Of a stretch of DNA of 64,000 nucleotides, positions 506 through 20,752 are shown piece by piece. Below the pieces are notes generated by a model, which made no database searches, was not told the DNA's origin, and was given only the letters and a program-made list of their open reading frames with translations. The stretch is from Cyanobacteria bacterium P01_D01_bin.156. Its GTDB lineage: Bacteria; Cyanobacteriota; Cyanobacteriia; Phormidesmidales; Phormidesmidaceae. The DNA is taken from NCBI GenBank assembly GCA_039024555.1, contig JBCCQQ010000013.1:32001-96000 (forward strand). Direction: 5' to 3'. Position numbers and translations under genes: made by a program. Position 1 is the first letter of the stretch. The number at the start of each line of letters is the position of its first letter.

Positions 506-1453
506 CTAGCAGGTAGCCGTCTGCACCCACATACGAACCATGGTACGAGGCTGGCTAGGATACTCAGTGTAGGCCCTGCGATCATGGGCTACACATCGAT
601 TATTTACCCAAAGCTGATCGCCTTGTTCCATCCGCAATGTGTGTACATGCTCAGGTATTTCCAATGCCGCATCTAACGCATCGAAGGCCTTTAGCTGCTG
701 CGTAGTAAGGGGTGCCTCGGCACGATGGTGCCCTGTTTCAATCCAATAGCGCATATAGCGAAAGGTGAATTGGCCAGTGGGCGCAAATACAGGAAACGCG
801 TTAGCACGAAGGCAGCTTAAATCTTTTTCTGCTCCGGGTGTAACTACATCGCGGATAAACGGCTGATACAGCTGCTCTAGATGCTGGGGAGCAGTAGCTG
901 CTAAATAGTTGTGCACGGTGACAGCGCTGCATAGGCGACTCTCTCCTCCTGTTTTGCCAGGCTGTAAACACAACAAACTGATAATATCTGGTTGTACCAA
1001 ACGGGCGGAACTATCTGTATGAAACCCCGTGGCTGAGCACGTCATACTAATGGGTACAACTTCCTTTTTATAGCAAACACCCCGATCTCTCACATCATAG
1101 AGACGGCCATAGTTTTCTAACACGTTGCCCAACGCTGTTCCGATGGCTAGATAAACCAATCGCTGCAGTGAGCGTGGCTGCTCTGCCACTAAATCACGGA
1201 CCAAACAAAAACCAGGGCCATGGGTCAATCGTTTATGGATCTCAGTAGCTAAACTGGCTATCCCAGGCAATGAAAGAGTTCCCCACTGCCACGCTTGCTC
1301 AGGATTATCTTGTCCTTTAGCCCAAGCATCTAATTTTTCAATATCTGATCCGATTGCAGCAGATGGCAGACATTGCCACAGAGAATCTGTAGCCAGCTCG
1401 CGTACCGTACAAGCGAGTGGCCTGGAACGCACAGCAGACAATGTACTAATCAT
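506..1453 (-). CDS. TauD/TfdA-like Fe(II)/2-oxoglutarate-dependent dioxygenase
   Basis: HxD motif (GFHTDS), LLCLQPGKTGGES, distal His in NNRCVAHDRRAY, terminal RxxxRxW. Confidence 0.85.
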   Translation of the reverse strand: MISTLSAVRSRPLACTVRELATDSLWQCLPSAAIGSDIEKLDAWAKGQDNPEQAWQWGTLSLPGIASLATEIHKRLTHGPGFCLVRDLVAEQPRSLQRLVYLAIGTALGNVLENYGRLYDVRDRGVCYKKEVVPISMTCSATGFHTDSSARLVQPDIISLLCLQPGKTGGESRLCSAVTVHNYLAATAPQHLEQLYQPFIRDVVTPGAEKDLSCLRANAFPVFAPTGQFTFRYMRYWIETGHHRAEAPLTTQQLKAFDALDAALEIPEHVHTLRMEQGDQLWVNNRCVAHDRRAYTEYPSQPRTMVRMWVQTATC

Positions 1454-1752
1454 GTAGAAATATCCCCTGATGGAAAAGTGTTGAATTAGAAATCAGAACT
1501 GATCATCCCAAAGTAGGTACATTTTTTGATGCGTATATCCTGGTACAGGAAACCAAACAACAAAACACCTGGCATACTGAATATACGCAAATAAGGATTA
1601 TGGGCTTATACATGGGGCAAAATAGCCCACCGTAAGAGCCATATCTGTGCCAGAAAGTCAGGACAACAGGCATTTCTCGAAAGCTTTAGCTGTAGCAAAC
1701 ACACAAACAACAAAATAGGTGTGAGTCGCTACATACCAAAAATTATTTAATG

Positions 1753-1858
1753 CTACCCTCACCAATTCTGGAGAAGACCTAACGACAAGATTCCAGAATT
1801 GGGTCAAGGTAGTATCAAAATTGTTGATTGAGATTATCTACTTAAATGCAGATAATCT
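1753..1858 (-). terminator. Two stem-loops just downstream of the methyltransferase gene
   Basis: CCAATTCTGGA(1762-1772)/TCCAGAATTGG(1792-1802) and AGATTATCT(1831-1839)/AGATAATCT(1850-1858). Confidence 0.45.
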
Positions 1859-1878
1859 ATCAATTGTTTAGCCATTGG

Positions 1879-2628
1879 CTAATGTTCAACCACAAACAAC
1901 ATATGTAAGGGAGTCCCTAGCAACGGCCCAAAGAAATCGGGATCTAGGTCAATATGTTCAGGTTGCACTGCCAGTTCCTTAATGACAGGTAGCTTAGTCC
2001 AACCTGCCGTCCTTAGAGCGACAAAGTAGTCTTCTAGGGTTTTATGAACACAGCGAACCGGCACATCAATGCCATCTCGCCGCCAAATACGACCTTCTAG
2101 AGTGCGATCGCGATCGCTCATATAAAGTGAATTCTCAGGATTAAAGAAAAAAGGATATTCCTGGGGGCGCAACCAGGGTAAGGAGGGATGAGGCACGGTA
2201 AATACGAATTTCCCTCCAGCTTTAAGTAGCCTACGCGCCTGACTTAGAACGGTTGTCATTTCCGCTCGCGTCAAATAGTTAAACAAAAAGATAGCGGCGA
2301 TGCGATCGTAATTACTGCTTTGCAAATGCATTAGATCTGTTGCACTGCCCTGTTGCCAAGAGAGCGCAGTATCATCTGTAGCTATCTGAGCGCGACCAAC
2401 CATCTCTTCTGAGAGCTCTATGCCCAAAACGGCAGAAGCACCACGAGCCCTCATTTGTCTGGCTAAATAGCCTTCTCCACAGCCTAGGTCAAGCACGTTT
2501 GCACCAACCATCGGCTCTAGGGCCTCCAGCGCAAATGGACGAGCTGTAAAGTCAGAAAGTAATACTTTTTCTGTTCTTACCCATTGAGCTGCGGCCTGAT
2601 CATAAATTTGTTGAGTTGTTGTACTCAT
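1879..2628 (-). CDS. Class I SAM-dependent methyltransferase
   Basis: Motif I VLDLGCGEG, acidic motif II (GIELS), LKAGGKFVF. Start overlaps the upstream stop (ATGA) and has a GGAGG RBS. Confidence 0.9.
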   Translation of the reverse strand: MSTTTQQIYDQAAAQWVRTEKVLLSDFTARPFALEALEPMVGANVLDLGCGEGYLARQMRARGASAVLGIELSEEMVGRAQIATDDTALSWQQGSATDLMHLQSSNYDRIAAIFLFNYLTRAEMTTVLSQARRLLKAGGKFVFTVPHPSLPWLRPQEYPFFFNPENSLYMSDRDRTLEGRIWRRDGIDVPVRCVHKTLEDYFVALRTAGWTKLPVIKELAVQPEHIDLDPDFFGPLLGTPLHMLFVVEH

Positions 2629-3440
2629 GCAGTCACACCTCCTTGAGTCAAGGCTCGCTCATACATCCAGTCCCAAAACTTGGCTCGCAAGTCGAGGGCG
2701 GCTAACATCCCTTTTCGAAGGTTAGACTGGCCCTCTGGCGTCACGGCCAGATCGGCAGCTATGTCCAATAGGGTTTCTTGGTGAGCATCGTCTACAAGGG
2801 TGTGCATCGAGAAAAAGACCGTATCTCGTGCGGATAAATTAGGCAATAATGAAAGTGCTTGCAAAATGGGACGATAGCACTGACTAACAATACTTTCTGT
2901 GCCCAATCCAAGGGCGCCAATTGCCTCTTCAATGGAGCCTTGACTTAACACCGTCAACAACTGGTTTCGCCAATAAATAACCTCTAGAGCTGTGCGCTCT
3001 AGATCGGTATCCAACACCCCAATTGCCCGCTGAAAGCGCTGAAATAGCTGAGGATGAGGAATTCCTAAAATCCACTCTGACTCAATTCCAGCTTTCGCGA
3101 GTGTCAGAAGGTCATCATCAGGATAGCTACCTGACTCTTCGTCAAGATTTTGCAACAATGCTTCACGATGATCGGCACAGTCTAACCGAGAGATAACTGC
3201 TTTGAGAAACGTTGGGAAATAGGTTGAATAGCCGTAGTACTGACGGGCAAAATCCGTCATGGCCCACTGCAAATCAGGTACATTTCCCGTCGCCAGCGCC
3301 TTTAGATAAGGATGCTGAAGCGCACAGTGGTGACTAGCTTCTTCGGAAAGTTCTTGCAGATATGCTTGCACACCCATGTATGTGGACAAGACATACTGGT
3401 GACTCACCGTAGAATCATGAGCGATAGAAACAACAGACAT
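2625..3440 (-). CDS. Heme-oxygenase-like diiron oxidase (iron-containing redox enzyme, CADD/PqqC/TenA-like fold)
   Basis: Diiron-type ligand pattern NLDEESG..PHPQLF..LGTE..MHTLVDDAH, plus N-terminal HPYL and C-terminal R..FWD. ATG at 3440 preferred over the longer ORF start. Confidence 0.8.
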   Translation of the reverse strand: MSVVSIAHDSTVSHQYVLSTYMGVQAYLQELSEEASHHCALQHPYLKALATGNVPDLQWAMTDFARQYYGYSTYFPTFLKAVISRLDCADHREALLQNLDEESGSYPDDDLLTLAKAGIESEWILGIPHPQLFQRFQRAIGVLDTDLERTALEVIYWRNQLLTVLSQGSIEEAIGALGLGTESIVSQCYRPILQALSLLPNLSARDTVFFSMHTLVDDAHQETLLDIAADLAVTPEGQSNLRKGMLAALDLRAKFWDWMYERALTQGGVTA

Positions 3441-3544
3441 AGTAGAAAGACCCTGAACAAAATTCAAAGCAACTTCGTAGAGACAGTTCGCAAAGCTTAT
3501 CTAGGACGTAGGCATAACAAACAACTACAACAAAAAAGATGCTA

Positions 3545-3580
3545 CATAGAAATTCTACGCAATTGCATAGAATTTCTATG
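3545..3580. promoter_or_regulatory. Near-perfect 36-bp palindrome upstream of the diiron oxidase gene
   Basis: CATAGAAATTCTA-cGCAATTGCa-TAGAATTTCTATG. Confidence 0.5.
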
Positions 3581-3750
3581 CTAGACAACATTTGCTGTCA
3601 GCCCGTTTCAAGCTTGTTATCTACCCCTAAAGGAAGGATAAACAACAGGCTGTATAACACAAAATTTTCAGCGTGAGTTTTTAGAACTCAGAGGATACTT
3701 ACCTAAATTGACTAGAAACATGCTTAACTCAAGCAATATTTAAGGGATAT

Positions 3751-3776
3751 AGGTACTTCCCGATAATTTCGGTAAA
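3751..3776 (+). promoter_or_regulatory. CGGTA-type repeat array (copy 1)
   Basis: AGGTA 3751, CGATA 3761, CGGTAAA 3770. Confidence 0.4.
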
Positions 3777-4022
3777 TATACTCATTTTAGTCAAAATATC
3801 TTAATTATTGTCCTGGATAATTACACGCAGATTAGCATGCCTACCCCCTAAAGAGATATCCGTATATTCAACTATATGCTATTAAAAATCTGGCACAACA
3901 TGATACGTAACACCTTTTTATTCAGGGGTTTAGCAGTTTTATTAAGAGATTCAGTGCTTTCCCTGATGCAGTATTTTTGTTTGCCAAACAACAAAATCAA
4001 AAGCTCAGAGGTTTTGATTAAC

Positions 4023-4038
4023 TCGGTATTAATACCGA
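4023..4038. promoter_or_regulatory. Perfect 16-bp palindrome made of two CGGTATT half-sites
   Basis: TCGGTATTAATACCGA equals its reverse complement. Confidence 0.55.
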
Positions 4039-4052
4039 ATAATATAAGTTTT

Positions 4053-4095
4053 CCAAACAGTATTTTTTGCCTTGGTGCAAAAAAATACTGTTTGG
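4053..4095. promoter_or_regulatory. Long inverted repeat upstream of H-NOX
   Basis: CCAAACAGTATTTTTTGC...GCAAAAAAATACTGTTTGG (one bulge). Confidence 0.5.
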
Positions 4096-4205
4096 GAATA
4101 CATTCAAGGCAAAAATTGATTTAATACTTAGAAAGTCAGGAGGTAACCTAGCGAAACCGATGTCGTAAGATCAGCCACATAATTTTATATAGAGGCAGCA
4201 ATAAT

Positions 4206-4757
4206 ATGTACGGATTAATTAATCGGGCTATTCAGGACATGGTGTGCGAGCACTACGGTGTTAGCCTATGGGAAGAAGTCAAACTCAGGGCGGACGTTGA
4301 AGAATCACGTTTCTTGGTACTGCACTCGTACCCAGATGATATGACCCATCGGCTCGTTAAAGCGGCTAGTGATGTGTTACAGCTTTCTAGCAGTGAGATT
4401 ATGGCCGCTTTCGGACGCTACTGGGTGGAATATACCGGTAAGGCAGGATATAAAGAGCTAATAGAAATGGCCGGTGATACATTACCTGACTTTTTAAGTA
4501 ACCTCGATGAGCTGCACTCAAGAGTAGGCGTCCAATTCCCGGAACTTAAACCTCCCGAGTTTAGCTGTGACCAAATAGATGGTCAAAATATTGAGCTACA
4601 TTACCAATCAACCCGCGATGGGCTGGCTCCCATGGTCCTTGGTTTACTAGAAGGTGTGGGCGACCGTTTTCATCAATCTGTTCAAGTCACTCAAGTTGAA
4701 GATCGTCAAGATGGTGCAGATCACGACGTTTTTCACGTTAGATACGAATCTGAGTAG
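4206..4757 (+). CDS. H-NOX (heme nitric oxide/oxygen binding, HNOB) protein
   Basis: MYGLIN start, SYPD, FGRYW, proximal His (LDELH), PPEF, YxSxR (YQSTR), final HDVF. Confidence 0.95.
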   Translation: MYGLINRAIQDMVCEHYGVSLWEEVKLRADVEESRFLVLHSYPDDMTHRLVKAASDVLQLSSSEIMAAFGRYWVEYTGKAGYKELIEMAGDTLPDFLSNLDELHSRVGVQFPELKPPEFSCDQIDGQNIELHYQSTRDGLAPMVLGLLEGVGDRFHQSVQVTQVEDRQDGADHDVFHVRYESE

Positions 4758-4760
4758 GTT

Positions 4761-6188
4761 ATGGACTCTTTTTCCTACACATTATCCCCAAAACATTTTA
4801 CTCAAGCGTTTCCATTCCACCTTGTACTAGATTCTTCGCTAAAAATCGTCCAAACTGGCTGTGTTCTGGAGCGTACTCTAGACCGATCATTAATAGGAGA
4901 TAATGTAGAAGACTATTTTGTCATTTCTCGTCCTAAAATCACCTGGGACTTATCTGTTATTAAAAACAAACAGCAATCGCTGTTCGTCCTATCGGTCAAA
5001 GAGTCAAACATGATTCTGAAAGGGCAGATGGTGTGGGATGCATCCATAGAGAAGCTATTTTTTCTATGTTCAGTCTGGGTGCATAAAGCAAATGATCTAA
5101 AAGTTCTAGGTCTCAAATTTCAGGACTTTGCGCTTCATGATACTACATCAGATTTTATAATTTTACAGCGCACTAGCCAGATGGCCTTGGAAGATGCCCA
5201 AGCACTTACTCAAGAAGTACAGCTGCAGAAAGAACAAGTTGAGACACTTTTAAAGCAACAGGAAAAATTGACTAAGGAGGCTCACGAGCGAGCACAAATC
5301 TTAGAAGAAACATTGATAAATTTGCGTAAAACTCAGCTACATCTGGTCCAAGCTGAGAAAATGAGTGCTTTAGGTCAGCTCACAGCTGGTATTGCCCATG
5401 AGATCAATAACCCTCTGGCTTTTATTAGCGGCAATCTTCAGTATCTCGAAGGGGATATTACGAACTTGCTCAAATTTGCAGCAACGTACCAAACCCAAAA
5501 TAATTATTCATCCCCTTCTTTGGAAGAGGCTTTTGCTCAGTTAGATTTTGAGTTTCTAGAAGCAGATTTGCCAAAGCTTTTAAACTCTTTGGAAGCCGGT
5601 AGCGATCGCATCATGGAAATCGTTAATGCACTACGGACATTCTCTCGTCTAGATGAAGCACCTATTAAACAAATAGATATCCATGAAGGACTGGATAGCT
5701 CGCTGCGGCTACTACAGCATCGCTTTAACGAAAAACCGCATCGATCAGAAATTGTTATTCATAAACGCTACTTCAATTCTCTGCCCAGCATTGAATGCTA
5801 TGCCGGGCAGCTCAATCAAGTGTTTATGAATGTGCTGGCAAATGCAGCTGATGCCATAGAAAATTCCTATCAGGAACATCCGATGATTCAGATTGCTACC
5901 GACCAACTTGACAACCATTGGATTCAGGTTTCTATCTTGGACAATGGCTCTGGCATTCCAGAAGAGGTCCAAAATAAAATTTTTGATCCGTTTTTTACCA
6001 CTAAACCAATTGGCAAAGGGACAGGATTAGGTATGTCCATTAGCCGACAAATTGTTACAGAACAGCATAGTGGGCGATTTTATTTTCAAACTCGTAGAAA
6101 TGCAGGCACCCAGTTCTTTATCGAGCTACCAATTAGTCAATCCTTGCCCGCTGCTAATACAGCCAATGAGTCGATGCAAGAAAATTAA
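4761..6188 (+). CDS. HNOBA (H-NOX-associated PAS-like) domain histidine kinase
   Basis: N-terminal [23 protein letters not shown] as in sGC HNOBA domains; H-box AHEINNP, N-box NQVFMN, G boxes DNGSG/GTGLG. Confidence 0.9.
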
Positions 6189-6270
6189 ACATCGCTTTGT
6201 AGAGACTTTCCAAGAGAACATCTGCTAATGCCCATTGACGATGCCTACAGTCGCAGAGAACTATTAGGTT

Positions 6271-6612
6271 CTAAAAAATCAAGAGATTTAACGGTACTGG
6301 ATCTCCAAGCCAGGTCGCATGATCCGTATGATCTGCCAGATCGTTTCCGGTCAATCCATGCACAAGCACAGTAAACTCTCCTCGGTTGTTGTCCAACCAT
6401 GGAATCAGTCGATCAAATTGGGTTTTATCAAAGGCTAATTGACAGCTCCGACAAGGGTGCGGACCCACTGGCTTTTGATGGACTCGACCCACATTTACCC
6501 CAAATAATTCTCCAGCCTGCTGACATAGGGAAGCTGCTTTTTGGGTGGAGTTGCCATCGAAATAAACATGGGCGTGATACTGGTCATAAATGTTGGTGGG
6601 ACGTTTTGTCAT
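6271..6612 (-). CDS. DOPA 4,5-dioxygenase family protein
   Basis: YHAHVYFD, VGRVHQKPVGPHP, VLVHGLTGNDLADHTDHATWLG. Start placed at ATG 6612. Confidence 0.85.
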   Translation of the reverse strand: MTKRPTNIYDQYHAHVYFDGNSTQKAASLCQQAGELFGVNVGRVHQKPVGPHPCRSCQLAFDKTQFDRLIPWLDNNRGEFTVLVHGLTGNDLADHTDHATWLGDPVPLNLLIF

Positions 6613-7009
6613 AGGTGAATCACATAAAATATCAGACATCTTGTTACCAATATAGGATTCGTGGCATTTCAGGCCGAAAATCCCTAGTTCAGCCTGTAGC
6701 ATGGTTATCAAAATACCCCAGAGTACGGGCCGTTTTTAGTCGCGGTTACTTTTTACATAGGTTCAGTTAGAGCTTCTTGGAGGCGGGTCTGAACCAAAAA
6801 CAAGTCGAGCCTATCAGGCAAATTGGAGCAACGCATTTGGCTAGCCTAAACAAAACATAATTTAGGTCCATAACCTAAATCATGACACCCCCGCAGGATG
6901 AAGCTAACTACAGTCTATTGAGTAGGCAAGATAGCCCTGCACCCATACGCTGTGGGGAACAGCATTAAAACACTGTAGCCATTGCTAAAGATTCAGCAGG
7001 CTCTAGTGC

Positions 7010-7762
7010 TTACTTGCTTGGGAACTGGTTAATATGGGCCACGCCGTAGAAAACTAGCTCCTTATTTCGCATCCTCACTTTATCAATGCGTAGCTGGGTG
7101 CCATCCAACGCAAAGGAATCTAGGTCCATTAACGCATTCACATGCTCGACAATGGCCTTAGCAAGGGCAATATCCTGATCGGTACCGCCGCAGCTAACAT
7201 CTACAAATGCCAGCTTCTTGCGCTCGTATACCTCTACGCGGGCCGTCAACGATATAAAGTTGGGTGGCGCTGACGTACTACCTACCCGGACCTGGCTTGT
7301 CAATGCAATGGTCTTATCGTCATTTAGCTCCATTTCAGTCCCACTAAAATAAAGCGCTTGATTGTCAAACTGCATACGCTGCAGCTTTTCCACCACAAAT
7401 GGCGTATTAAAGGATGTGGTCAAATCTTCTTCGGTGAGTACTACCCGCATGGACGCTTGGGTAGGCTGCTTGATCCTCACTTGGCCTTTAAAGATAGCGC
7501 CAAAATCAATAGATACCGCTTGTACAAACAGCTCCATAGCTTTGATGCGTAGGCCGTTGTACATCAGCATGCTGTGGCCTACAAAATCAAAACCGTCCAC
7601 ACTACCCTGGAGCAACTTAGCAACGGGTTCAGCCCGTACATTAGCCTCCAGCTTGCCGGTACGCTTAAACAAAGCGGCAATGGCACTGCTCACTGCCTTG
7701 CTGACCACTTGGTCACCGCCCTGTCCTGGAAATGGTAAATTGCCTAGCACGAAGGATGTCAT
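7010..7762 (-). CDS. DUF2993 / LmeA-like family protein
   Basis: V.AEP..KLLQGSVDG, IDFG, VVLTEEDL..SFN motifs typical of the cyanobacterial family. Confidence 0.7.
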   Translation of the reverse strand: MTSFVLGNLPFPGQGGDQVVSKAVSSAIAALFKRTGKLEANVRAEPVAKLLQGSVDGFDFVGHSMLMYNGLRIKAMELFVQAVSIDFGAIFKGQVRIKQPTQASMRVVLTEEDLTTSFNTPFVVEKLQRMQFDNQALYFSGTEMELNDDKTIALTSQVRVGSTSAPPNFISLTARVEVYERKKLAFVDVSCGGTDQDIALAKAIVEHVNALMDLDSFALDGTQLRIDKVRMRNKELVFYGVAHINQFPSK

Positions 7763-8095
7763 TCCTGATCAATGAGCGATTTCACAGCAACGATAGCCGA
7801 AATCAAACGTATGTGGTCAGCCCTATTATGTACTTATTTTAAGAAATGTAACCAGTGAAAACGATACCTTTCCCTTATCAATGGGATTGAAAGACTAAAA
7901 GGATTGTAATGCAGGTCTTCCCATATCTTCAGACAATCTAGCCGGAATCGTTGATCCTGGCGTTTGCAAGGCTTTGTAATAGAGATGAAAAAACGTCAAA
8001 ACCATTACAGACTAAGATTTTCGAGTTAGTCAGTATAGGGCCAATCATTTTTTACTCACAGAATACTGAACGATGTCGTATAGGTAGATATATCT

Positions 8096-9145
8096 ATGGT
8101 TAGCATAGAGAAAAAGCAATTGCTAAATCACTATCCACGGGGATGCACCTTTGCCAACGACGATTGGGATGCGATCGCACCGTTCTGGTTTCCCGTTGCC
8201 TTTAGCCACGAGGTAAACGATCAACCAGTATCAACCACCTTGCTGGATCAGCGCCTGGTGGTATGGCGCACGAGCCAAGGGGTATCCGTTGCCAATGACC
8301 TATGTCTGCACCGCGGTGTACCCATGAGTATGGGGCAGGTCAAGGGCGATCAGCTAATTTGCAAGTACCACGGCTTTCACTACGATGCCAGCGGCAAATG
8401 CACCCTGATTCCGGCCAATCCCCAAGCAAGTATTCCAGCCCGCCTATGTCTAAAAGCCTATCCTGTCCGTGAAGCCTACGGTCTGGTGTGGACTACCCTG
8501 ACGGGCGATGGCAGTGATTCAAACCTCCCCCAGCTACCAGAATGGGACACCCCAGACTACCAGCCCATATTGCCGAACAGCTTAGATATTAATGCAGCTG
8601 CAGGTCGGCAAATGGAGGGTTTTTTGGATGTGGCCCACTTTGCCTGGGTCCATCATGAAGCGTTTGCCGACCGGGATAAGCCAGAGGTACCCCCCTATAC
8701 CGTTACAACGACACCGATGGGGTTGCGAGCTGAGTATACTAGTAATGTTAGTAATTTCCCTAAGGGATTACAGCATCGGGCACCCGCTGATTTTCAGTGG
8801 CTGCGCGTATTTGATGTGTTTCTACCCTTTGCCGCCATTTTGCGGGTGCATTTTCCAGATGGGGGACGGCTGTGTATTCTCAATGCGCCATCACCTATGT
8901 CCGCTCGAAAAACTCGGTTATTCTCTCCCCTGTGTCGTAATTTTGACCAGGATCAGCCCCTAGAGCCTGTCTACGAATTTAATCGACAAATTTTTACAGA
9001 AGATCAAGAGGTTGTGGAAGCTCAATACCCTGAGGACTTACCTTTGGATTTACGTACTGAGTGCCACATTGAAGCCGATAAAACCTCTATTGCCTATCGC
9101 AAGGGACTGGCACAGCTAGGACTTAGCAAAGTGTACACGGCTTAG
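8096..9145 (+). CDS. Rieske non-heme iron oxygenase, VanA-like (O/N-demethylase or monooxygenase type)
   Basis: Rieske CLHRG / CKYHG; mononuclear Fe site EGFLDVAHFAWVH...FTED. Confidence 0.9.
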   Translation: MVSIEKKQLLNHYPRGCTFANDDWDAIAPFWFPVAFSHEVNDQPVSTTLLDQRLVVWRTSQGVSVANDLCLHRGVPMSMGQVKGDQLICKYHGFHYDASGKCTLIPANPQASIPARLCLKAYPVREAYGLVWTTLTGDGSDSNLPQLPEWDTPDYQPILPNSLDINAAAGRQMEGFLDVAHFAWVHHEAFADRDKPEVPPYTVTTTPMGLRAEYTSNVSNFPKGLQHRAPADFQWLRVFDVFLPFAAILRVHFPDGGRLCILNAPSPMSARKTRLFSPLCRNFDQDQPLEPVYEFNRQIFTEDQEVVEAQYPEDLPLDLRTECHIEADKTSIAYRKGLAQLGLSKVYTA

Positions 9146-9246
9146 GGGTGGGCATACTGGGGGTGCGTCGACGCATTGAGTAACCCTTTAGAGCGCGCTC
9201 AACCCTGTCGGTGGTGCATTCTTATCGTCACATCCTGACTATCAAT

Positions 9247-10401
9247 ATGTTTAAAGTAGCGGTTGGCCATAGCATTGACCCTGATTCTAGTATGGCCATT
9301 GATGAGGCTTTAGGTCAGTGTCAACAACAGCTGGCTGGTATCGTGCCCCAGGCTGGTTTGCTGCTCAGTGCAGTGGATTTTGACCATGGTTTAATTTTGC
9401 GGAAAATTCAAGCCACATTTCCCGGTATGGCGCTGATTGGCGGTACTACCGTTGGGGAAATGTCCTCCGTCCTGGATTTCCAGGAAGATTCTTTAAGCCT
9501 GATGCTGTTTGCATCGGATGAAGTGACGATTCAATCAGGGCTGGGGACTAGGGTTTCTCAAGATGCGATCGCAGCCACTCGACAAGCTATTCCTGACCTC
9601 AACGGTAGACCAGCTAAATTATGCTACACCGTGGGAGAAAGTCTTGGTGTAGATGGTGTTGACATTGTTAACGGCCTCCAGGCCGCCCTAGGTGAAGATG
9701 TAACCATTTTTGGGGGGCTGACAGGAGATGACTGGAAATTCAAACAGACCTATCAGTTCTTTGGTGACCAAGTCCTGAGTGATGCTGTAACTACCCTGGT
9801 TTTTTCCGGTAATCTCATGATTTCCTGCGGTGTTGCCACAGGGCTAAGGCCCATCGGTCGTAAAGGAATTGTTACCAAATCCCAGGGTAATACTGTGCAT
9901 ACTATTGACAATCAATCCGTAAAGCATTTTTATGCTCAGTATATGGGGGATAGTTCCATTGCAGATGTGGGTGGTGCCTGGGGGGGGTCCGTAGCCGTCT
10001 TTGAACCAGGAGAAGAGAATTTTTATGTGCGAGGTCCTAATAGTCAGGATGAAGCTTCCGGTAGTATAGACTACTTTGGCCAGGTTCCAGAACAGGCCCA
10101 TATTCAACTTACTGAATCTAATACTGAAAGTTTGTTAAATGCCGCGTCCCAAGCTCTCAAGAGAGCCCAGGCCGACTATCAAGGCACATCTCCCAGCGTT
10201 GCCCTCATTGTTTCCTGTGCTGCTCGCATGAAATCCCTAGGAACGCGTACTCGCGAGGAATATGCGGTTGCCCAATCCGTATTAGGCAAACTCCCCAATA
10301 TAGGGTTCCATGCCTACGGAGAAATTTGCCCCCTAGGTACAACTGGAAAATCGTTTTATCACAATGAAACGTTCACCACCGTACTGCTAGGTACCCATTA
10401 G
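9247..10401 (+). CDS. FIST (FIST_N + FIST_C) sensory protein, NosP-like
   Basis: [35 protein letters not shown] motifs; ATG at 9247. Confidence 0.9.
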
Positions 10402-10442
10402 TCGTGGCAAGTTCCCATGCAGTCGTTACAGCTACATTAACC

Positions 10443-12086
10443 ATGGAGGATCTGACCCCAGACGAGTTACATCAGCGAATTGCAGACCTGGAACGGAGCA
10501 ATCGCATTTTAGAAAAGAAACTAGCCCGATCAGAAGCCACCAGGGGCGAGTTAGAAACCCTAAGTCAGCGACGTGAACTGATGCTAAAACAGCTGCTGCG
10601 GGAAGTAGAAACGGCCAAAGTAGATCTCGAAACTGCTAAGGAAGTTGCTGATAAAGCCAATCAAGCCAAGAGTGAATTTTTGGCCAACATGAGCCACGAG
10701 CTACGCACTCCCCTAAATGGGATTTTAGGCTACGCTCAAATTTTGCAGCGAGATAGCCAAACCACCCATCAACAAAGAAGCGGTCTGGCCATTGTGCAGC
10801 AGTGTGCCCAGCATCTGTTGACCCTGATCAATGATATTTTAGATCTTTCAAAAATTGAGGCCCGTAAATTAGAGCTACATCCTGAACCTTTGGGGGTGGA
10901 TGATTTTCTCTACGGCATTAAAGAGATTTGTCGGATTAAAGCCGAACAGAAGGATCTCACGTTTCAATATGAAGCGGTCAATCAGCTACCTACTGCCATC
11001 AAAGCAGATGAAAAACGTCTGGGACAGGTGCTCATTAACCTGTTGGGGAATGCTATCAAATTTACGGATCGGGGCCATGTTGTTCTTAAAGTGGGGTCTT
11101 TAGATCCTGCTACCTCCCCTAGGTTGAGTTCCCAGGAATCTTCTAACCAAGTTCGACTCCAGTTTCAGGTAGAAGATACGGGTATTGGTATGACTCCGCC
11201 CCAGCTGGAGAGTATCTTTTTGCCTTTTGAGCAGGTGGGCAGTGCGGAGCGTCAGGCCCAGGGAACTGGCCTAGGGTTAGCCATTAGTCGCCAGATTGTA
11301 GAACTAATGGGTGGTACCTTACAGGTTAAAAGTACCTACGGTGAAGGCAGTACTTTCTGGTTTGATCTAACCTTGACCGTTGCTGACGACTGGCAAGGTC
11401 GCCACAATGAGCCGTCAGTCTTGGATACGATTGTTGGTTATGGGGGCGATCGCAAACGGATTTTAATTGTCGATGACCGTTGGGAAAATAGATCTGTTTT
11501 GCGCAATCTACTCACCCCCCTCGGGTTTGATATCCTCGAAGCCGAAGATGGTAAAGCGGGATTGGAACAGGCAACAACCCAGATACCCGATCTGATTATT
11601 ACCGATCTGGTCATGCCAGAAATGGGCGGCTTTGAAATGACTCAGCAACTCAAACATTCTGACGCTACTAAGGACGTCCCCATTATTGCCTCCTCTGCCA
11701 GCGTGTTTGATTTTGACCGTCAGCAAAGCTATGCCGCGGGCTGTAATGAATTTCTCCCGAAACCCATCCAAATCGATGAACTCTTCGGTTATCTGCAGCA
11801 GCACTTAAATCTAGTGTGGCAGCATAGCGCCGCCGTCGCCGTTGAAGACAATAACCCCACTGGGAAAACCATTACCCTACCCCCCATTGCCATACTCAAA
11901 ACCCTACATGCCACCGCCGAAGCAGGCTATATCCTAGATGTTCAGACCATGGCAGAGCAGCTATTAACGGAACACGAAGCATTTGCTAGAAAAATTTTAG
12001 CCTTTGTGGACGAATTAGACGACGAAGCCGTTGTTGACTATATTGCCCCCCATCTAACAGAGTCTGCAGGAGGTGAAGCCCAATGA
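10443..12086 (+). CDS. Cytoplasmic hybrid histidine kinase (coiled coil-HisKA-HATPase-REC)
   Basis: [35 protein letters not shown]; receiver ILIVDD..TDLVMP..KP. No TM segment or sensor domain. Confidence 0.92.
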
Positions 12087-13360
12087 CACCCCCAAAAATA
12101 ATCGCTAGCTTATCCAGCACCTCCGAGCAAGGCGGCCTCACTTGCAAGACACAAGATAAGCAGTCGATTTTAATTGTTGACGATAACCCCAACAATGTTA
12201 AGGTCCTCTGCGATCTTCTCAATAAAAACAATTACCGCGTTTCCATTGCTAAAAGTGGAGAGAGTGCCCTTAAAAAAGTGGCACGCTCATCTCCAGACTT
12301 GATCTTATTAGACATTATGATGCCCGGTATTGATGGCTTTGAAGTGTGTTCTCGGCTCAAAGCAAATCCGGATACTAAAGATATTCCCATTCTTTTTATG
12401 ACGGCTCTTTCCGATACCCTCAACAGGGTAAAAGGACTCAGCTTAGGCGCTGTTGACTACATTACTAAACCCATTGAACATGAAGAGACCTTAGCCCGTA
12501 TCCAGGTGCACCTGACCCTGCGTCAAACCCAGGCACAGCTGGTACAAGAAGAAAAAATGGCAGCACTAGGTCAGCTGGTGGCCGGTGTCGCCCATGAGAT
12601 TAATAACCCTCTAAACTTTATCTGTGGGAATTTAGAACCTGCTGTAGACTACGCCAAGTCTCTGTTAGAGCTGCTGCGCTTATATGAGGACAATACGACT
12701 TCTCCTTCAGCAGAGATTGCCAACTATGCTGAAGAGATTGAACTGGACTATATTCGCCAAGATTTTTTGCGGTTGCTCAATTCTATGGTGGTAGGTGCAG
12801 AACGCATTGAGAAAATTGTGCGTTCACTGCAGCTGATTTCACGAGTGGATGACTCTGTGCGCAAGCCAGCGGAACTACAGGATGGTTTAGATAGCACCCT
12901 GATGATTTTGCACAATCGCTTAAAAATACAGCCTGGGCGGCCTGCGATTGAAGTGGTTAGAAAGTATGAGCCATTGCCCTTAGTGCAGTGCTATCCTGGC
13001 AAAATCAACCAGGTTTTTATGAATTTGATCGTTAATGCCATCGATGCCATTGATGATAAGTGTTCTACTTTATCTACTGAGGAGCTAGAGACCGTAGAGC
13101 CTTCATTATTGATTTCAACAACTTTGGAAAATGAACAGGCTGTCATTACTATTTCAGATAGTGGAACCGGCATTCCTGCTAATATTCAACAGCGCATTTT
13201 TGATCAGTTTTTTACGACAAAACCAGCTGGAAAAGGAACAGGATTGGGCCTGGCTATTTCCCACGCCATTGTCACCCAAAAACACCGAGGAGAACTTACG
13301 TTTAAGTCTCAGCCAGGTATCGGTACAGACTTCATTATTAAATTACCGCTACTGGTCTAG
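12083..13360 (+). CDS. REC-histidine kinase hybrid
   Basis: ILIVDD..LDIMMP..KP receiver followed by AHEINNP and HATPase boxes; 4-nt overlap with the upstream gene. Confidence 0.92.
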
Positions 13361-16516: not shown

Positions 16517-18991
16517 ATGGCCGCTAAAGCTTACGAAGTAGATAAGAAGATTTTTCAAGCATTACTGGTAGCATACCAGGAGAAATGTGGTTCTTCGCCT
16601 TCTAACTTGATTGACAGACTCAACCAAGCTTTTCCAGAGGACTTAGACGTTCTTCGTAAGAAGAGAGGGGGGTCTACATCCCGAGATCTGATTTCTGATA
16701 AGACCATCCGTAATTTTTTTAACTCCGATCAGCCTGGCCGTATGGTCGAAAAAAATCTCAACTTTCTGTGTCGCTATCTGCTGAGCTTCTCTAGCTATCG
16801 GGATGCGCTTAATAATTATAAATCAGGTAATACTACACCCCGAGGCAATGAGCTCAAACTCCAGCCTTCAAAGTCTTTGGTTACATCCTGGATCGAGCCC
16901 TATGTTGCGTACTTTATTAAAAAGTATGATCAGGTTCGAATCCCTAATATGACTAGATCTGCTCATATTGACTCTGTTTACACGGAGTCAATGCTATCGG
17001 AGGACCTGCGTATTCGTAGACGTAAGTCTTTTTTAGAACTACAGGCTGAGATGGAGCCAAACTATGTAGAAACTAAATCTCGGACTACTGTTTCTGATGT
17101 GTTTTCCGAGCACGAGCGTCTTATGGTTTGGGGTCCTGCAGGGTCAGGAAAAACCACGTCCCTAAAGTTTTATGCTCTTCGTATTGCTGAGTCTCTTCGT
17201 TCAAAGCCTGATGGTTCATTAGTTCCAATATTTATTGAATGTTCTCGGTTCTCAACGGCTGAAGTTGAGACTGATTTGCTTAAGGTAATTGCTGGCAAGC
17301 TTGAACATGGCGATATGAGTCCTGAAGAGTCTCAGGACATAGCCAAAGACTTGCTCAAGCATGGCCAGTGTATTGTTCTTCTAGATGGACTAGACGAAGT
17401 ACCTAAAGATATTAGACCCAAGGTATCTAGGCAATTTGACATACTGATTAATAAATATCCTAAAAATCGCTTTATTCTCACCTGCCGCTACGGAGCTACG
17501 GAATCTGTACCTGAGAACTTTACTGAAGTCGAGATGACCGACTTCGATCAGAAACAGATCTATACCTTTGTACATTCGTGGTTCAAGGATAACGATGAGA
17601 AAGGGGTTATTCGGAGATTTCTAGCGTATCTAAAAGAACACTCAAACATTGGGAAATTAGCAAAGAATCCTCTTCTGTTGACAATGCTTTGCTCAATTTA
17701 TGAACAGGGATACGAGTTTCCCAAAGGAAAAAGTTCTCTATTTGAAGATGCTACCGATCTCTATTTGCGGAAATGGGATTCTTATCGTCGTATCGATCAT
17801 AGAGACAAGATTTACGATGGTTTGCTATCTAGACCCAAACGACGAGATCTGTTTAGCCGACTCGCTTACGAAGGCATGAATCGTCAAGATATAGCTAAGA
17901 GCTTCTGGCGACGTACAGATCTGCAGAAGTTTATCAGAGAATACATTGAAAATTTGAAGGATGCAAAAGAAAAGTCGTTAGATGATGACGCCCGTCAGAT
18001 TTTGGATGCTCTAGAGTCCCAAGATAGCTTACTAACCCGCTCCGCCCATGAAGTTTATACATTCTCCTATGAGGGCTTTTCAGCCTATTTTACTGCTATG
18101 AAGGTTAAAGAAGAAATGGGAACTGAGCCTAAACATTGGAATCGCTTTCTAAAAGAACATGCTCTACAGCCTGAATGGAGAGAGTCTTTACTGTTTACAG
18201 CTGAGCAGCTTTCAGAAGCTAATACGTTCTTGAAGTGCTTGTTTAAGCTGATGCAGCAGCAGCTTGATGTCTTATCTGATACAAGTAGACAGCGCTTAAT
18301 GGAAGCGTTTGAATGGTTAGAGCAGGCAACCGATGGCGCTAAGGTTAGCTCCAGTGCATGGCGTGCTTGTTTTCTTTCATTCGATTTAGAAACTGACCTG
18401 CGTATTTCTCGTAAAACAAAAGGGATGGATAATCAAACAGCTCAAAGGGTTGCTACAAAGCTACGAGCTGTGAATAAACAAGCAGGAAGTTTGAAATCTA
18501 GAACAGACGCGGCCAAGCTGAGTCTGGATCTGGCTGTTATCCACACACTGGTAATGGATAGGGCTGAGAACTTGCCTACCAAGATTGAAATGCTTGAGCA
18601 CTACGACCCAACCTATCGAGCTGCACAACAAGATATCTCTGATAGATATAAAGACTCAATTGAGCTTGCAGAAAAGCTAAAGCCTGAGTTAGCAGAAGAA
18701 CTACATCAGCTCACAGATTCTATACCAAATCTTGAACAAGCATCCTGTAAAGCTTGTCAAAACTGGGCTGAAGCGCTCCAAGTTCTAATGAAACAGTATC
18801 TATATGAAGGGTATGCCATTGTTCTAGAGCCTCAGGAAGTTGATGCCCTTAACAACTACTTATATCTGTGCGAACTTCTGGTTGATTGTTTACAGGCAGA
18901 CATTTATTGCTCTAAATCTTTACGAGAAGATTTACTTGAGGCTTTGATGCTACCGTCATCCAGTGATAAAATACCTGGAACACTTTTATAA
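16517..18991 (+). CDS. NACHT (STAND) NTPase with putative N-terminal HTH and cyanobacterial C-terminal helical (NCH2-like) domain
   Basis: Walker A GPAGSGKTT, Walker B VLLDGLDEV, ILTCR, NPLLL. N-terminal ISDKTIRNFFN resembles an XRE-type recognition helix. C-terminal YLYLCELLVDCLQ...EALMLP. Confidence 0.88.
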   Translation: MAAKAYEVDKKIFQALLVAYQEKCGSSPSNLIDRLNQAFPEDLDVLRKKRGGSTSRDLISDKTIRNFFNSDQPGRMVEKNLNFLCRYLLSFSSYRDALNNYKSGNTTPRGNELKLQPSKSLVTSWIEPYVAYFIKKYDQVRIPNMTRSAHIDSVYTESMLSEDLRIRRRKSFLELQAEMEPNYVETKSRTTVSDVFSEHERLMVWGPAGSGKTTSLKFYALRIAESLRSKPDGSLVPIFIECSRFSTAEVETDLLKVIAGKLEHGDMSPEESQDIAKDLLKHGQCIVLLDGLDEVPKDIRPKVSRQFDILINKYPKNRFILTCRYGATESVPENFTEVEMTDFDQKQIYTFVHSWFKDNDEKGVIRRFLAYLKEHSNIGKLAKNPLLLTMLCSIYEQGYEFPKGKSSLFEDATDLYLRKWDSYRRIDHRDKIYDGLLSRPKRRDLFSRLAYEGMNRQDIAKSFWRRTDLQKFIREYIENLKDAKEKSLDDDARQILDALESQDSLLTRSAHEVYTFSYEGFSAYFTAMKVKEEMGTEPKHWNRFLKEHALQPEWRESLLFTAEQLSEANTFLKCLFKLMQQQLDVLSDTSRQRLMEAFEWLEQATDGAKVSSSAWRACFLSFDLETDLRISRKTKGMDNQTAQRVATKLRAVNKQAGSLKSRTDAAKLSLDLAVIHTLVMDRAENLPTKIEMLEHYDPTYRAAQQDISDRYKDSIELAEKLKPELAEELHQLTDSIPNLEQASCKACQNWAEALQVLMKQYLYEGYAIVLEPQEVDALNNYLYLCELLVDCLQADIYCSKSLREDLLEALMLPSSSDKIPGTLL

Positions 18992-19060
18992 GTTTGGTAT
19001 CGCTTGCGCTTAGCACCGATGGCTCTGTTTATCTAATAACAAGTCTATAATCTGCTTAAG

Positions 19061-20752
19061 ATGCAGCAGCAGTTTATGAAAATCAAATCTGCAGTTCTCC
19101 CAATTCTTATAGGTATTTGCTCTTACGGAATTTTTCTTGCCCTTTCGAGAGTCTTTGGACCTGATTTTAGTATTCGTAACATTTCTATATTAAATCATTC
19201 TGTACTACAGCCTGCAATGTTTATCGCTGTTGCTGCTGGCTTATATTTGAATGTATCAGAAATTAATACTTCAGAGCTACTCAAAAATAGAGCTGCTATT
19301 TTAGCTGTACTACTTGTTGGTGTTCCCGTAAAAATACTTGTCCCAGGTTTCATATTGTTCGGAGTATCTTCTTTTGGGCTAGGTGTAGCTTTGCTGTGTG
19401 CTACAGTCATTGCTCAAATAGACCCTATCCTTACAGCTCGTAATGTCGATCCCGAACGATTTAGTGAAAAATCTGGAACGATTCTGAGATGCTGGTCCAG
19501 TTTTGATGATCCTATTACGGTCTTATTCGCCTTTTATGTCTTTTTGCCCCTTTTTTTTGAGGCATCGTCAGGCTCGATTGGTAGCTATCTGTTTGGATTA
19601 TGTATAGAAACTTTAGTTTGTGGTAGCACTGCTCGGTTTCTTTATGATGCTAATATTCGCTCCCAAAAGCTAGGGGTGGTTGCTACCTGCTTGAGTAGTG
19701 CCCTACTAGGTAGATTCTTACTACCGGCCGCTCTGGGGCTAGCCGTTCGTCCATTTAGAAATGAAAGGACTAAAACGACGCTTCTGAATTGGATTTTTTG
19801 GTTTAGTGCAGCCGTGATTGGTGGATTAGCCGTTGGTCTAGATATAAATTGGACTGCTGGCCTTGTTTTGGGCGTAAGCACGTTTGCGATCGCGCAGCCC
19901 TTGGTTTCCTTGATGTTTATCCGAGGTGACAGTCCGCCTAACTTTTGGCGTATAGTCTTTGGGCATCAGAATGGTATGACCGCTATTCTGTTGACAATTG
20001 CCATCGAATTACAAACAGGGCAAACACAGCTGATGTCGATTACAATTCCAGCAGTTTTGTTTATTGCTTTGTTTTACGGCTTCTCTAATTGGTGGTTAGA
20101 TAGATATTGGCCCACTCCCAACACTTCAGAAGTAGGCTTCTCTCAGAGAAATATTCAATCCTTGATGGACCAACCAGAGGTAAAATCACTAAGCAATAGC
20201 TCATCATATTCAGCCGTAGACAATACGAAAGAGCTAAATAAAATCGTAAATGAAATAGAAGACTTAACTAAGTTGACCGATGATGCACAGGAGGCCCTAG
20301 CAAATAGCCATCATTACACGGTCACTCAACTAAGGCAGAAATATAGACCCGAACCACTGCTAAAAAATGAGCTTGAGCATGAATTAAAGCAACAGCAGCA
20401 GTGTATCAATAGTTCACTAAATCATCTTGATAATTTAAAAGCATATCTTTTAGACATTCAAAGGCAAATAATCAAACAACAAAAAACTCTTTCTACAGAT
20501 GTGCCTAAGCCACTACGAGTGGATTTTGATGGAGCTCATAGGTTGCTTATGGCTGTAATCAAACCTGGCCATAGACAGTCTATGAACGCCAAATCACCTA
20601 CTACAGATGCAAAACTTGAAAAGCAATCGCTTACATTCAGCAAAGGTCACGAGTCAAGCAAACCAATCGAGGCCTATACAGCAGACATTACAGCCAGACT
20701 AAACAATATAGAGGAACGTTTACAAAAGTTCTGCAACGTATCCAATAAGTAA
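19061..20752 (+). CDS. Cation:proton antiporter-like membrane protein with long soluble C-terminal tail
   Basis: About 11-12 hydrophobic segments with AQIDP and WSSFDDP motifs resembling CPA transporters; ~200-aa hydrophilic, partly coiled-coil tail. Confidence 0.6.
   Translation: MQQQFMKIKSAVLPILIGICSYGIFLALSRVFGPDFSIRNISILNHSVLQPAMFIAVAAGLYLNVSEINTSELLKNRAAILAVLLVGVPVKILVPGFILFGVSSFGLGVALLCATVIAQIDPILTARNVDPERFSEKSGTILRCWSSFDDPITVLFAFYVFLPLFFEASSGSIGSYLFGLCIETLVCGSTARFLYDANIRSQKLGVVATCLSSALLGRFLLPAALGLAVRPFRNERTKTTLLNWIFWFSAAVIGGLAVGLDINWTAGLVLGVSTFAIAQPLVSLMFIRGDSPPNFWRIVFGHQNGMTAILLTIAIELQTGQTQLMSITIPAVLFIALFYGFSNWWLDRYWPTPNTSEVGFSQRNIQSLMDQPEVKSLSNSSSYSAVDNTKELNKIVNEIEDLTKLTDDAQEALANSHHYTVTQLRQKYRPEPLLKNELEHELKQQQQCINSSLNHLDNLKAYLLDIQRQIIKQQKTLSTDVPKPLRVDFDGAHRLLMAVIKPGHRQSMNAKSPTTDAKLEKQSLTFSKGHESSKPIEAYTADITARLNNIEERLQKFCNVSNK

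Follow-up and report, generated by a model that had tools for sequence, protein, structure and literature searches.

A heme-oxygenase-like oxidase, a methyltransferase and a TauD-family dioxygenase encoded head to head with an H-NOX/kinase pair: an undescribed enzyme-sensor module in cyanobacteria

Near the start of a 64,000-nucleotide stretch of the genome of Cyanobacteria bacterium P01_D01_bin.156 (contig JBCCQQ010000013.1, positions 32,001 to 96,000; "the window" means this whole stretch), three enzyme genes lie head to head with the genes for a heme-based sensor of the H-NOX family and its HNOBA histidine kinase. The enzymes are a heme-oxygenase-like dimetal oxidase (HDO), a methyltransferase (MT) and a TauD-family Fe(II)/2-oxoglutarate (2OG) dioxygenase, and the unit as a whole spans positions 506 to 6188 of the window (5.7 kb). 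The original prediction, made from the sequence alone, had described a self-contained signalling island of 13 kb. The finding shrinks to 5.7 kb and is stronger there: these genes form an undescribed enzyme-sensor module. We put at about even the case that the trio is a regulated synthase of a small heme ligand, nitric oxide (NO) or another gas, which is read by the adjacent H-NOX; substrate, product and direction are what we infer in that reading.

Results

The enzyme trio and the sensor pair

The three enzyme genes are on the minus strand. The TauD-family gene (506-1453; PF02668, 108.6 bits) encodes an HxD...H triad, H145/D147/H290. The product of the MT gene (1879-2628) is a class I S-adenosylmethionine (SAM) methyltransferase that matches Pfam Methyltransf_25/11 and has a DLGCGEG motif. 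The HDO gene (2625-3440) encodes a single-domain protein of 271 amino acids (PF14518, 61.9 bits against a cut-off of 28.9); position 3440 is the best choice for its start, and its stop codon overlaps the start of the MT gene (ATGA). On the plus strand, a stand-alone H-NOX of the Nostoc Alr2278 type (4206-4757; PF07700, 176 bits) is followed, 3 bp past its stop codon, by a histidine kinase whose Pfam architecture is HNOBA-coiled coil-HisKA-HATPase (4761-6188). All the catalytic and metal-binding motifs are intact, i.e., the six predicted HDO ligands, the TauD HxD...H triad, the MT SAM motif, His104 and YxSxR of H-NOX and, further to the right, the motifs of a Rieske oxygenase. Substitution patterns show purifying selection on the five genes (nonsynonymous divergence of 0.11-0.24, synonymous sites at or near saturation).

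The two halves are separated by a putative divergent control region of 765 bp (3441-4205), which is AT rich (GC content 0.345). Two inverted repeats, both near-perfect, are found in it. One (3544-3581) is a 17-18 bp hairpin with a T-run that lies some 100 bp ahead of the HDO start and resembles a terminator on the minus strand; the other (4050-4098) has 19-bp arms and precedes H-NOX by about 110 bp. These repeats represent a possible attenuator or operator. Counts of promoters and terminators were at chance level.

The genome of the window is 99% complete (6.6 Mb) and contains two H-NOX genes, three FIST genes and a single enzyme cassette. The original prediction had supposed a system without an NO synthase, and indeed no match to the NO synthase profile PF02898 was found in this genome; as a control, the same profile matched 2 of 14 genomes. 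The second H-NOX of the genome (L009:4397-9808, contig C31) has an HNOBA-GAF-kinase-2xREC-Hpt protein as its partner and lies divergently to a further Rieske gene, with no cassette there.

Linkage of the enzymes to H-NOX

After a survey of the window's own HDO subtype had come back negative (see Discussion), an H-NOX locus of another genome of the family (G059, L196), where an MT 47% identical and an HDO 29% identical to those of the window lie directly upstream of H-NOX, led us to a class-wide test of linkage. The sample comprised 401 genomes, and adjacency was defined as a distance within 6 kb. H-NOX gave 57 matches in 51 genomes. The MT was used alone as a query, blind to H-NOX (E ≤ 1e-45; six candidates per genome were scored and some may be missed). 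Window-type MTs were found in 20 genomes, 19 of which have H-NOX, compared with the base rate of 51/401. The MT lies within 6 kb of H-NOX in 17 of these 20 genomes with the window's genome counted, or in 16 of 19 without it, across six families.

For the oxidase, a profile of three HDO subtypes (at least 272 bits, the next match being at 122 bits) yielded a clade of 26 genes in 25 genomes, and 19 of the 26 genes lie next to H-NOX. Because linked sequences were among the seeds of this profile, the MT count is the cleaner of the two. None of the 79 lower-scoring HDOs used as a control was adjacent to H-NOX, though 16 of them lie in H-NOX genomes. A truncated HDO beside H-NOX (G299, L233) was set aside from both counts. 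Fisher's exact test gave a p value of 6e-18, which overstates the linkage as kin are not independent. Among four further MT loci from a separate sample, two were full operons, one was a decayed copy with the kinase without H-NOX, and one was a cassette without H-NOX in 13 kb. The co-occurrence of enzymes and sensor across cyanobacteria, which the original prediction had named as its own check, was thus found in the contrast between linked MTs and control HDOs.

We also looked for other forms of the association. No HDO-H-NOX fusion protein was seen, which is weak evidence because one scan covered 8000 candidates of 768-2190 amino acids. Beside cassette-free H-NOX genes, no other recurrent gas source was present in the 52 upstream open reading frames (ORFs) scanned of 76, apart from a pirin in one genus. 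In that genus (L236, L253 and L254), a pirin/quercetinase gene directly precedes the H-NOX-kinase pair, which is the second such pair, and a LysR gene is divergent there.

Three enzymes as one unit

We examined 160 loci of the window's HDO subtype, i.e., the best 80 of 210 plus the best 80 of 200 confirmed matches, which span cyanobacteria, Myxococcota, Planctomycetota and Alphaproteobacteria. Homologues of both MT and TauD were present in 45 of them, a small cupin with an HxHxHE motif in 98, and all of these partners in 11; 23 loci had neither MT, TauD nor cupin, many of these on short contigs. The MT of the window belongs to a tight, uncharacterized family (73 representatives at E ≤ 1e-30). 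Its long relatives, 37 of which were chosen by length from the relatives listed, are HDO-MT-TauD fusions in the window's gene order in 21 cases. Because the three activities occur in one polypeptide, in the same order, in many organisms, comparison of these proteins shows that the three enzymes form one functional unit.

Several of the relatives carry regulatory domains. Among 22 longer MT relatives, 13 have EF-hands in their listed domains, and one protein (P0127) combines four EF-hands, HDO, MT and TauD. Others have the architectures EF-hand-globin-HDO-MT-TauD (P0137), receiver (REC)-MT (P0123) and REC-Hpt-HDO-MT (P0199). A cyclic nucleotide monophosphate (cNMP)-binding domain was counted by hand on 52 of 120 HDO relatives among the matches listed. 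The presence of EF-hand, cNMP and receiver domains on the enzymes suggests fast control of activity, which would suit a signal. As for the partner enzymes, the solved chains nearest to TauD are 7N7V, a "predicted hydroxylase", and FrbJ, while those nearest to the MT are generic (3BKW and ToxA).

The surroundings of cassettes elsewhere were diverse. Across lineages, the 105 ORFs that flank type-1 cassettes include no recurrent transporter or biosynthetic partner; some of these cassettes have Crp/Fnr, GGDEF-EAL and cyclase genes nearby. In seven picocyanobacterial loci (L023, L038, L045, L053, L058, L103 and L118), a gene for a Crp/Fnr-family regulator is divergent from HDO and cupin genes. A triple fusion of HDO, cupin and cytochrome P450 (P0143) is 822 amino acids long. 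In genome G251 (L214:2916-8650), MT-TauD-HDO is upstream of and codirectional with the hydrogenase maturation gene hypF. In genome G436 (L224:9243-15183), MT-TauD-HDO is directly upstream of a gene for an ethylene receptor of ETR1_N-GAF-kinase-3xREC architecture, with an intact CxxxH motif. On an alphaproteobacterial plasmid (L280:6192-11870), an HDO-MT pair is found in what appears by eye to be a flagellar glycosylation locus that also has ATP-grasp, 2OG-like and aminotransferase ORFs, representing another use of this pair; no H-NOX-like ORF was seen there by eye.

Layouts and number of junctions

Four layouts were observed beside H-NOX in the linked loci. In the first, a gene that we call OX2 is divergent from MT-HDO-[HNOBA-GAF-PAS-GGDEF-EAL]-H-NOX-kinase. 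In the second (L217-L219 and L221), TauD, HDO and MT are divergent from H-NOX-kinase, which is the gene set of the window with another HDO subtype. The third has an HDO-cupin fusion divergent from H-NOX (L237 and L242), and the fourth is the window's arrangement, TauD-MT-HDO divergent from H-NOX-kinase. OX2 (L196:6378-7391 and orthologues) is a conserved protein of 330-350 amino acids with an HxD...H motif and no Pfam match, and it replaces TauD in the main linked operon. It is fused to MT in P0122, and 13% of one cluster gave a PhyH lead; it is probably a 2OG-type oxygenase.

The 16 other linked MTs group in one clade (100/99) of the 65-row MT tree, apart from the window's MT, and two changes are forced. 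In the HDO tree (FastTree, 59 rows, 25 of which are a random draw from nonfocal loci; long-branch warning), three changes are forced. The window's H-NOX belongs to a starred clade of eight whose other seven members have no cassette. By the trees, the HDO-H-NOX junction thus arose on at least three occasions, with HDOs that are only 25-30% identical, and the window is one such case. Alternatively, an ancestral link could have been lost in all kin of the window. Some loci look like stages of loss: one has the truncated HDO and no MT beside H-NOX (L233), one has MT, a truncated HDO and the kinase without H-NOX (L278), and one has H-NOX-kinase alone at the apcEAB site where relatives carry the full operon (L235).

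Predicted properties of the oxidase and the sensor

The HDO model (mean predicted local distance difference test score of 91.4) has the seven-helix heme-oxygenase fold. It superimposes on CADD with Z 25.1 and a root mean square deviation (rmsd) of 1.9 Å over 211 aligned residues, followed by HrmI (Z 24.7) and BesC (Z 23.4), with UndA after BesC; Foldseek ranks CADD, BesC and UndA first. SznF is absent from both fold-comparison listings, which does not exclude a likeness to SznF. The modelled fold does not discriminate between N-oxygenation and C-C cleavage. A predicted 3-His/3-carboxylate ligand set comprises E102, H129, E182, H213 and H220, present in 175 of 175 sequences, and D217, present in 174; the roles were assigned by alignment and invariance rather than from a metal-bound structure. 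The HDO would be an O2-activating diiron enzyme. It scores 56.9 bits against the NCBIfam cut-off of 200 for CADD and 29 bits against 500 for BesC.

The H-NOX matches Alr2278 structures at E 6e-66, with the proximal His104, the YxSxR motif at 133-137 (Y133-S135-R137), Trp73 and Pro117, and it has no distal Tyr at positions 143-148. H-NOX proteins without a distal Tyr are of the NO-selective type. From these residues, the window's H-NOX is an ordinary Alr2278-type protein predicted to bind heme and NO. A special ligand pocket in cassette-linked H-NOX proteins was rejected, as 21 linked and 39 unlinked sequences do not differ in their pocket residues. H-NOX and its kinase are a textbook pair; here the HNOBA kinase is the cognate partner in the same operon, and the same pair recurs at most of the H-NOX loci examined.

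The 13-kb region as a mosaic

All genes named in the original prediction are present, each with a Pfam score above its cut-off. The unit is preceded by the C terminus of a pirin (to 387, plus strand) and followed by a DOPA 4,5-dioxygenase-family gene (6271-6639, minus), an overlooked LmeA/DUF2993 gene (lmeA; PF11209; 7010-7762, minus), a Rieske oxygenase alpha subunit gene with Rieske and VanA_C domains whose product is SxtT/NdmA-like (8096-9145, plus), a FIST/FIST_C gene (9247-10401, plus), a hybrid kinase gene (10404-12086, plus) and a REC-kinase gene (12083-13360, plus). All of these lie outside the module.

Synteny argued against a single 13-kb island. In genome G021 (L174), the pirin, DOPA dioxygenase, lmeA, Rieske, FIST and both kinase genes are kept in window order, and a single porin gene replaces TauD-MT-HDO and H-NOX-kinase. 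As the order is kept around the swapped block, the region divides into a variable block (506-6188), backbone (6271-9145) and a second insert (9247-13360); the claim of a self-contained island was therefore abandoned. The lmeA and Rieske genes are backbone of the genus: in 17 of its 18 loci they are divergent neighbors, and the remaining locus is at a contig end. In 6 of these 18 loci the DOPA dioxygenase gene stands beside or close to lmeA with the cassette absent, and it is a bystander. The pirin was rejected as a part of the module in this window, as G021 has it at the same place with neither cassette nor H-NOX.

The distribution of the genes was determined in 121 genomes of the family, including 21 other members of the genus, and 30 Rieske loci were retrieved. 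A Rieske orthologue is present in 65 family genomes (18 of the 21 other genus members), FIST in 113, H-NOX in 9 and the window's HDO subtype in 5. Neither H-NOX nor the cassette was found in the 30 Rieske loci. Outside the genus (12 loci), the Rieske gene adjoins genes for 8-oxoguanine deaminase (4 loci), guanine deaminase (1) or the urate pathway (1). The solved chains nearest to the Rieske protein are SxtDIOX, SxtT and NdmA (E 1e-40 to 4e-39), compared with 3e-16 for DdmC. On account of these purine-catabolism neighbors and of its SxtT-type and NdmA-type nearest relatives, the enzyme probably acts in purine or methylxanthine catabolism. The description "VanA-like" holds for its domains and metal motifs and fails on kinship, since it is not closest to the O-demethylases. 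Nor does a VanB-type reductase gene accompany it, its flanks being lmeA and FIST. Given its distribution, relatives and neighbors, a role of the Rieske enzyme as eraser of the product was rejected.

The FIST gene had been proposed to encode a second reader. FIST genes were found in none of 64 H-NOX loci and none of the 160 HDO loci, and the window's protein scores 70.9 bits for NosP (NF041558; cut-off 450). As FIST is absent from those loci and the Rieske gene stands by purine genes, both the "second reader" and the "eraser" were dropped. FIST and two kinases follow the Rieske gene in one of the 30 Rieske loci (G021); the FIST/two-kinase operon is a separate, patchy insert shared with that genome and unlinked to the module.

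Two further features were noted. A low-GC pair at 16517-20752 encodes a NACHT/STAND NTPase of 824 amino acids and a 563-amino-acid membrane protein without a Pfam match, possibly with a role in defense or regulation. Away from the window, the same genome has two ethylene-receptor-like N-terminal domains (C11:33935 and C11:61434).

Discussion

The unit at 506-6188 brings an enzyme trio and a sensor pair together, and FIST, Rieske, DOPA dioxygenase and pirin are bystanders to it. In the reading that we put at about even, a small substrate resembling an amino acid would be prepared by the MT and the 2OG dioxygenase. The diiron HDO, activating O2, would then convert it to a product that is, or releases, a small heme-binding gas. 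The gas would bind the ferrous heme of H-NOX and thereby alter the autokinase activity of the HNOBA kinase. The net result would be an O2-dependent make-and-sense loop without an NO synthase.

Which gas would be made is a separate matter. NO, formed by N-oxygenation as in SznE/SznF or HrmI, is by analogy the single likeliest ligand, though we put it forward tentatively. In streptozotocin biosynthesis (SznE/SznF, also StzE/StzF), the product of SznF, a nitrosourea, decays to NO (PMC11705231). The likeness consists of an MT, an HDO and a mononuclear-iron beta-barrel enzyme (PMC11705231, PMC13108848), and a cupin accompanies relatives of the window's HDO, either as a partner or fused at the C terminus, in the SznF domain order. 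In contrast with SznF, the window's HDO appears to have a 3-His/3-carboxylate rather than a 3-His/4-carboxylate set, TauD stands in place of a cupin in its own genome, and the cassette comes without sugar-transfer or carrier genes and is linked to a sensor rather than to an antibiotic pathway. The analogy with SznE/SznF drawn in the original prediction thus survives for architecture only.

A number of observations weigh against the proposed synthase. On the enzymatic side, SznF gave no sequence match to the HDO; in the alignment (no SznF superposition was made), the clade has no invariant extra glutamate like that of SznF beyond E101/D beside E102; and the clade's partner cupin gave no tblastn match in the window's genome, the best profile score being 22.6 bits. 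Residue 77 of the HDO is Thr in the window and in the G007 orthologue, compared with Arg in 170 of 175 clade members, and Thr77 may alter the substrate or mark decay. On the side of linkage, none of the 160 other loci of the window's HDO subtype, many of them on short contigs and most noncyanobacterial, has H-NOX, HNOBA or FIST. The three cassettes closest to the window's (L013-L015) were not seen beside H-NOX, and in genome G064 H-NOX is on another contig. Conversely, 38 of the 57 H-NOX matches have no full clade HDO alongside, including four genus orthologues of the window's H-NOX that are 75-78% identical to it. Furthermore, 16 of the 17 adjacent MTs belong to one clade and may derive from one old operon kept by descent. 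Finally, adjacency gives no direction between enzymes and sensor.

The last point leaves room for the reverse order of events, in which H-NOX and its kinase sense outside NO or redox and control the cassette as their output, an O2-consuming, NO-sensitive non-heme-iron pathway to a methylated, oxidized metabolite. This explains the same linkage of MT and HDO to H-NOX. In the window and in L217-L219 and L221, the enzymes are divergent from the sensor, as regulated targets often are, most cassettes occur without H-NOX, and most characterized HDOs modify amino or fatty acids in the biosynthesis of natural products (PMC13108848). However, in most linked loci MT and HDO are codirectional with H-NOX and kinase, often 0.1-0.4 kb upstream. 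In addition, no gene for a transporter, carrier protein or ligase was repeatedly found with the cassette in different lineages, and fast control of activity, as suggested by the EF-hand, cNMP and receiver domains, suits a signal. We regard an output role as rather unlikely.

Within the proposed synthase, the ligand could be a gas from C-C cleavage (CO, ethylene or a small alkene, cyanide or isocyanide) instead of NO. The 3-His/3-carboxylate site and the Foldseek ranking of CADD, BesC and UndA agree with such chemistry, as do the cassette directly upstream of the ETR1-type ethylene receptor kinase with its intact CxxxH, the one upstream of hypF, and the pirin/quercetinase gene that precedes H-NOX in three loci. 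Quercetinases release CO, and H-NOX binds CO. Yet the N-oxygenase HrmI ties with CADD (Z 24.7 versus 25.1) and also has a 3-His/3-carboxylate site (PMC13108848), and the ETR1 and hypF contexts are single loci, the sister cassettes L214 and L223 not being next to an ethylene receptor. We consider a C-C cleavage gas an unlikely ligand, behind NO.

The link could also be real in the family and a coincidence in this genome, a mobile type-1 cassette and a mobile H-NOX-kinase pair having landed separately at the variable pirin/DOPA dioxygenase site. None of the 160 loci of the same subtype is beside H-NOX, G021 has a porin gene at this site, GC content differs between the two halves (0.47 versus 0.42), which have separate histories in the trees, and the window was selected for this very adjacency. 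Against it, with two H-NOX genes and one cassette in 6.6 Mb, a chance meeting of just those two elements that are linked in other genomes is estimated at about 1 in 1000, and the layout and gene set match those of L217-L219 and L221, which have another HDO subtype. Separate landing is decidedly unlikely in our view. As for the 13-kb island as first conceived, in which H-NOX and FIST read a product that the Rieske enzyme demethylates, it is very improbable and largely refuted by synteny. In its favor, its genes all fall inside a 13-kb span, NdmA/NdmB, to which the Rieske protein is similar, are N-demethylases, and the G007 cassette is two genes from an 8-oxoguanine deaminase gene, a Rieske-gene neighbor elsewhere. 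Against it, FIST is missing from the H-NOX and HDO loci and follows 1 of 30 Rieske genes, the Rieske gene is found in 65 family genomes and the HDO subtype in 5, lmeA stands between the halves, and G021 has the right half without the left.

The synthase that we propose is best compared with known systems part by part. In Silicibacter sp. TrichCH4B, an NO synthase, an H-NOX and a histidine kinase allow one bacterium to make and sense the gas, and the NO source for most H-NOX bacteria is unknown (PMC4436077). What is shared with that loop is make-and-sense gas signalling through H-NOX and a kinase, which is proposed here; the difference is that there is no NO synthase, the candidate source being the heme-free trio of diiron HDO, MT and 2OG dioxygenase. 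With Alr2278 of Nostoc sp. PCC 7120, the window's sensor shares the His, YxSxR and Trp residues and the HNOBA kinase downstream; alr2278-2280 are named as a two-component operon only, with no enzyme partner mentioned in the accessible portion of the source (PMC12267927). CADD/CT610, BesC, HrmI and UndA share with the HDO the seven-helix fold (Z 21-25, rmsd 1.9-2.9 Å) and the 3-His/3-carboxylate set. They differ in their identity of 16-21%, in a 17-residue insertion between E102 and H129 and in their partner genes, and the CADD and BesC scores are far below the NCBIfam cut-offs. By the features tested, the HDO is not a member of the CADD, BesC or SznF families. The FIST operon recalls NosP-NahK, as a stand-alone FIST/FIST_C gene is followed by a cytoplasmic hybrid kinase gene. 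It is unlinked to the cassette, and beside the NosP score reported above the kinase reaches 161 bits of the 400 for NahK; by its cut-off, the FIST protein is not NosP. A review goes no further than to state that FIST "may bind NO and/or heme" (PMC8846402).

A search of the literature, mostly without subscription journals and supplements, found no paper on the cassette or its H-NOX link; the supplement of an HDO network study (PMC11363339) may include the clade. HDOs number more than 10,000, and just a dozen or so have a known reaction (PMC13108848). The unit lends itself to testing, with three small soluble enzymes and a colored reporter protein in one 5.7-kb block that is cheap to test.

Calcium-calmodulin NO synthase wired to soluble guanylate cyclase provides the parallel for a stronger version of our proposal. 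HDO-MT-TauD would be a heme-free counterpart of NO synthase, i.e., an O2-dependent synthase of a gas messenger wired to H-NOX/HNOBA and gated by Ca2+, cyclic nucleotide or phosphorylation depending on the lineage. We rate this version as unlikely. If true, it would account for the endogenous ligand of roughly one in three cyanobacterial H-NOX genes. Since the enzyme unit stands beside 19 of the 57 H-NOX matches in the class-wide sample, it is a testable candidate source of the H-NOX ligand, and whatever its product turns out to be (NO, CO, an alkene or a regulated metabolite), the answer would add a new reaction to those of the HDOs and a new input to signalling. Make-and-sense gas signalling is already known, and the module would be categorically new if its ligand or its chemistry is other than known.

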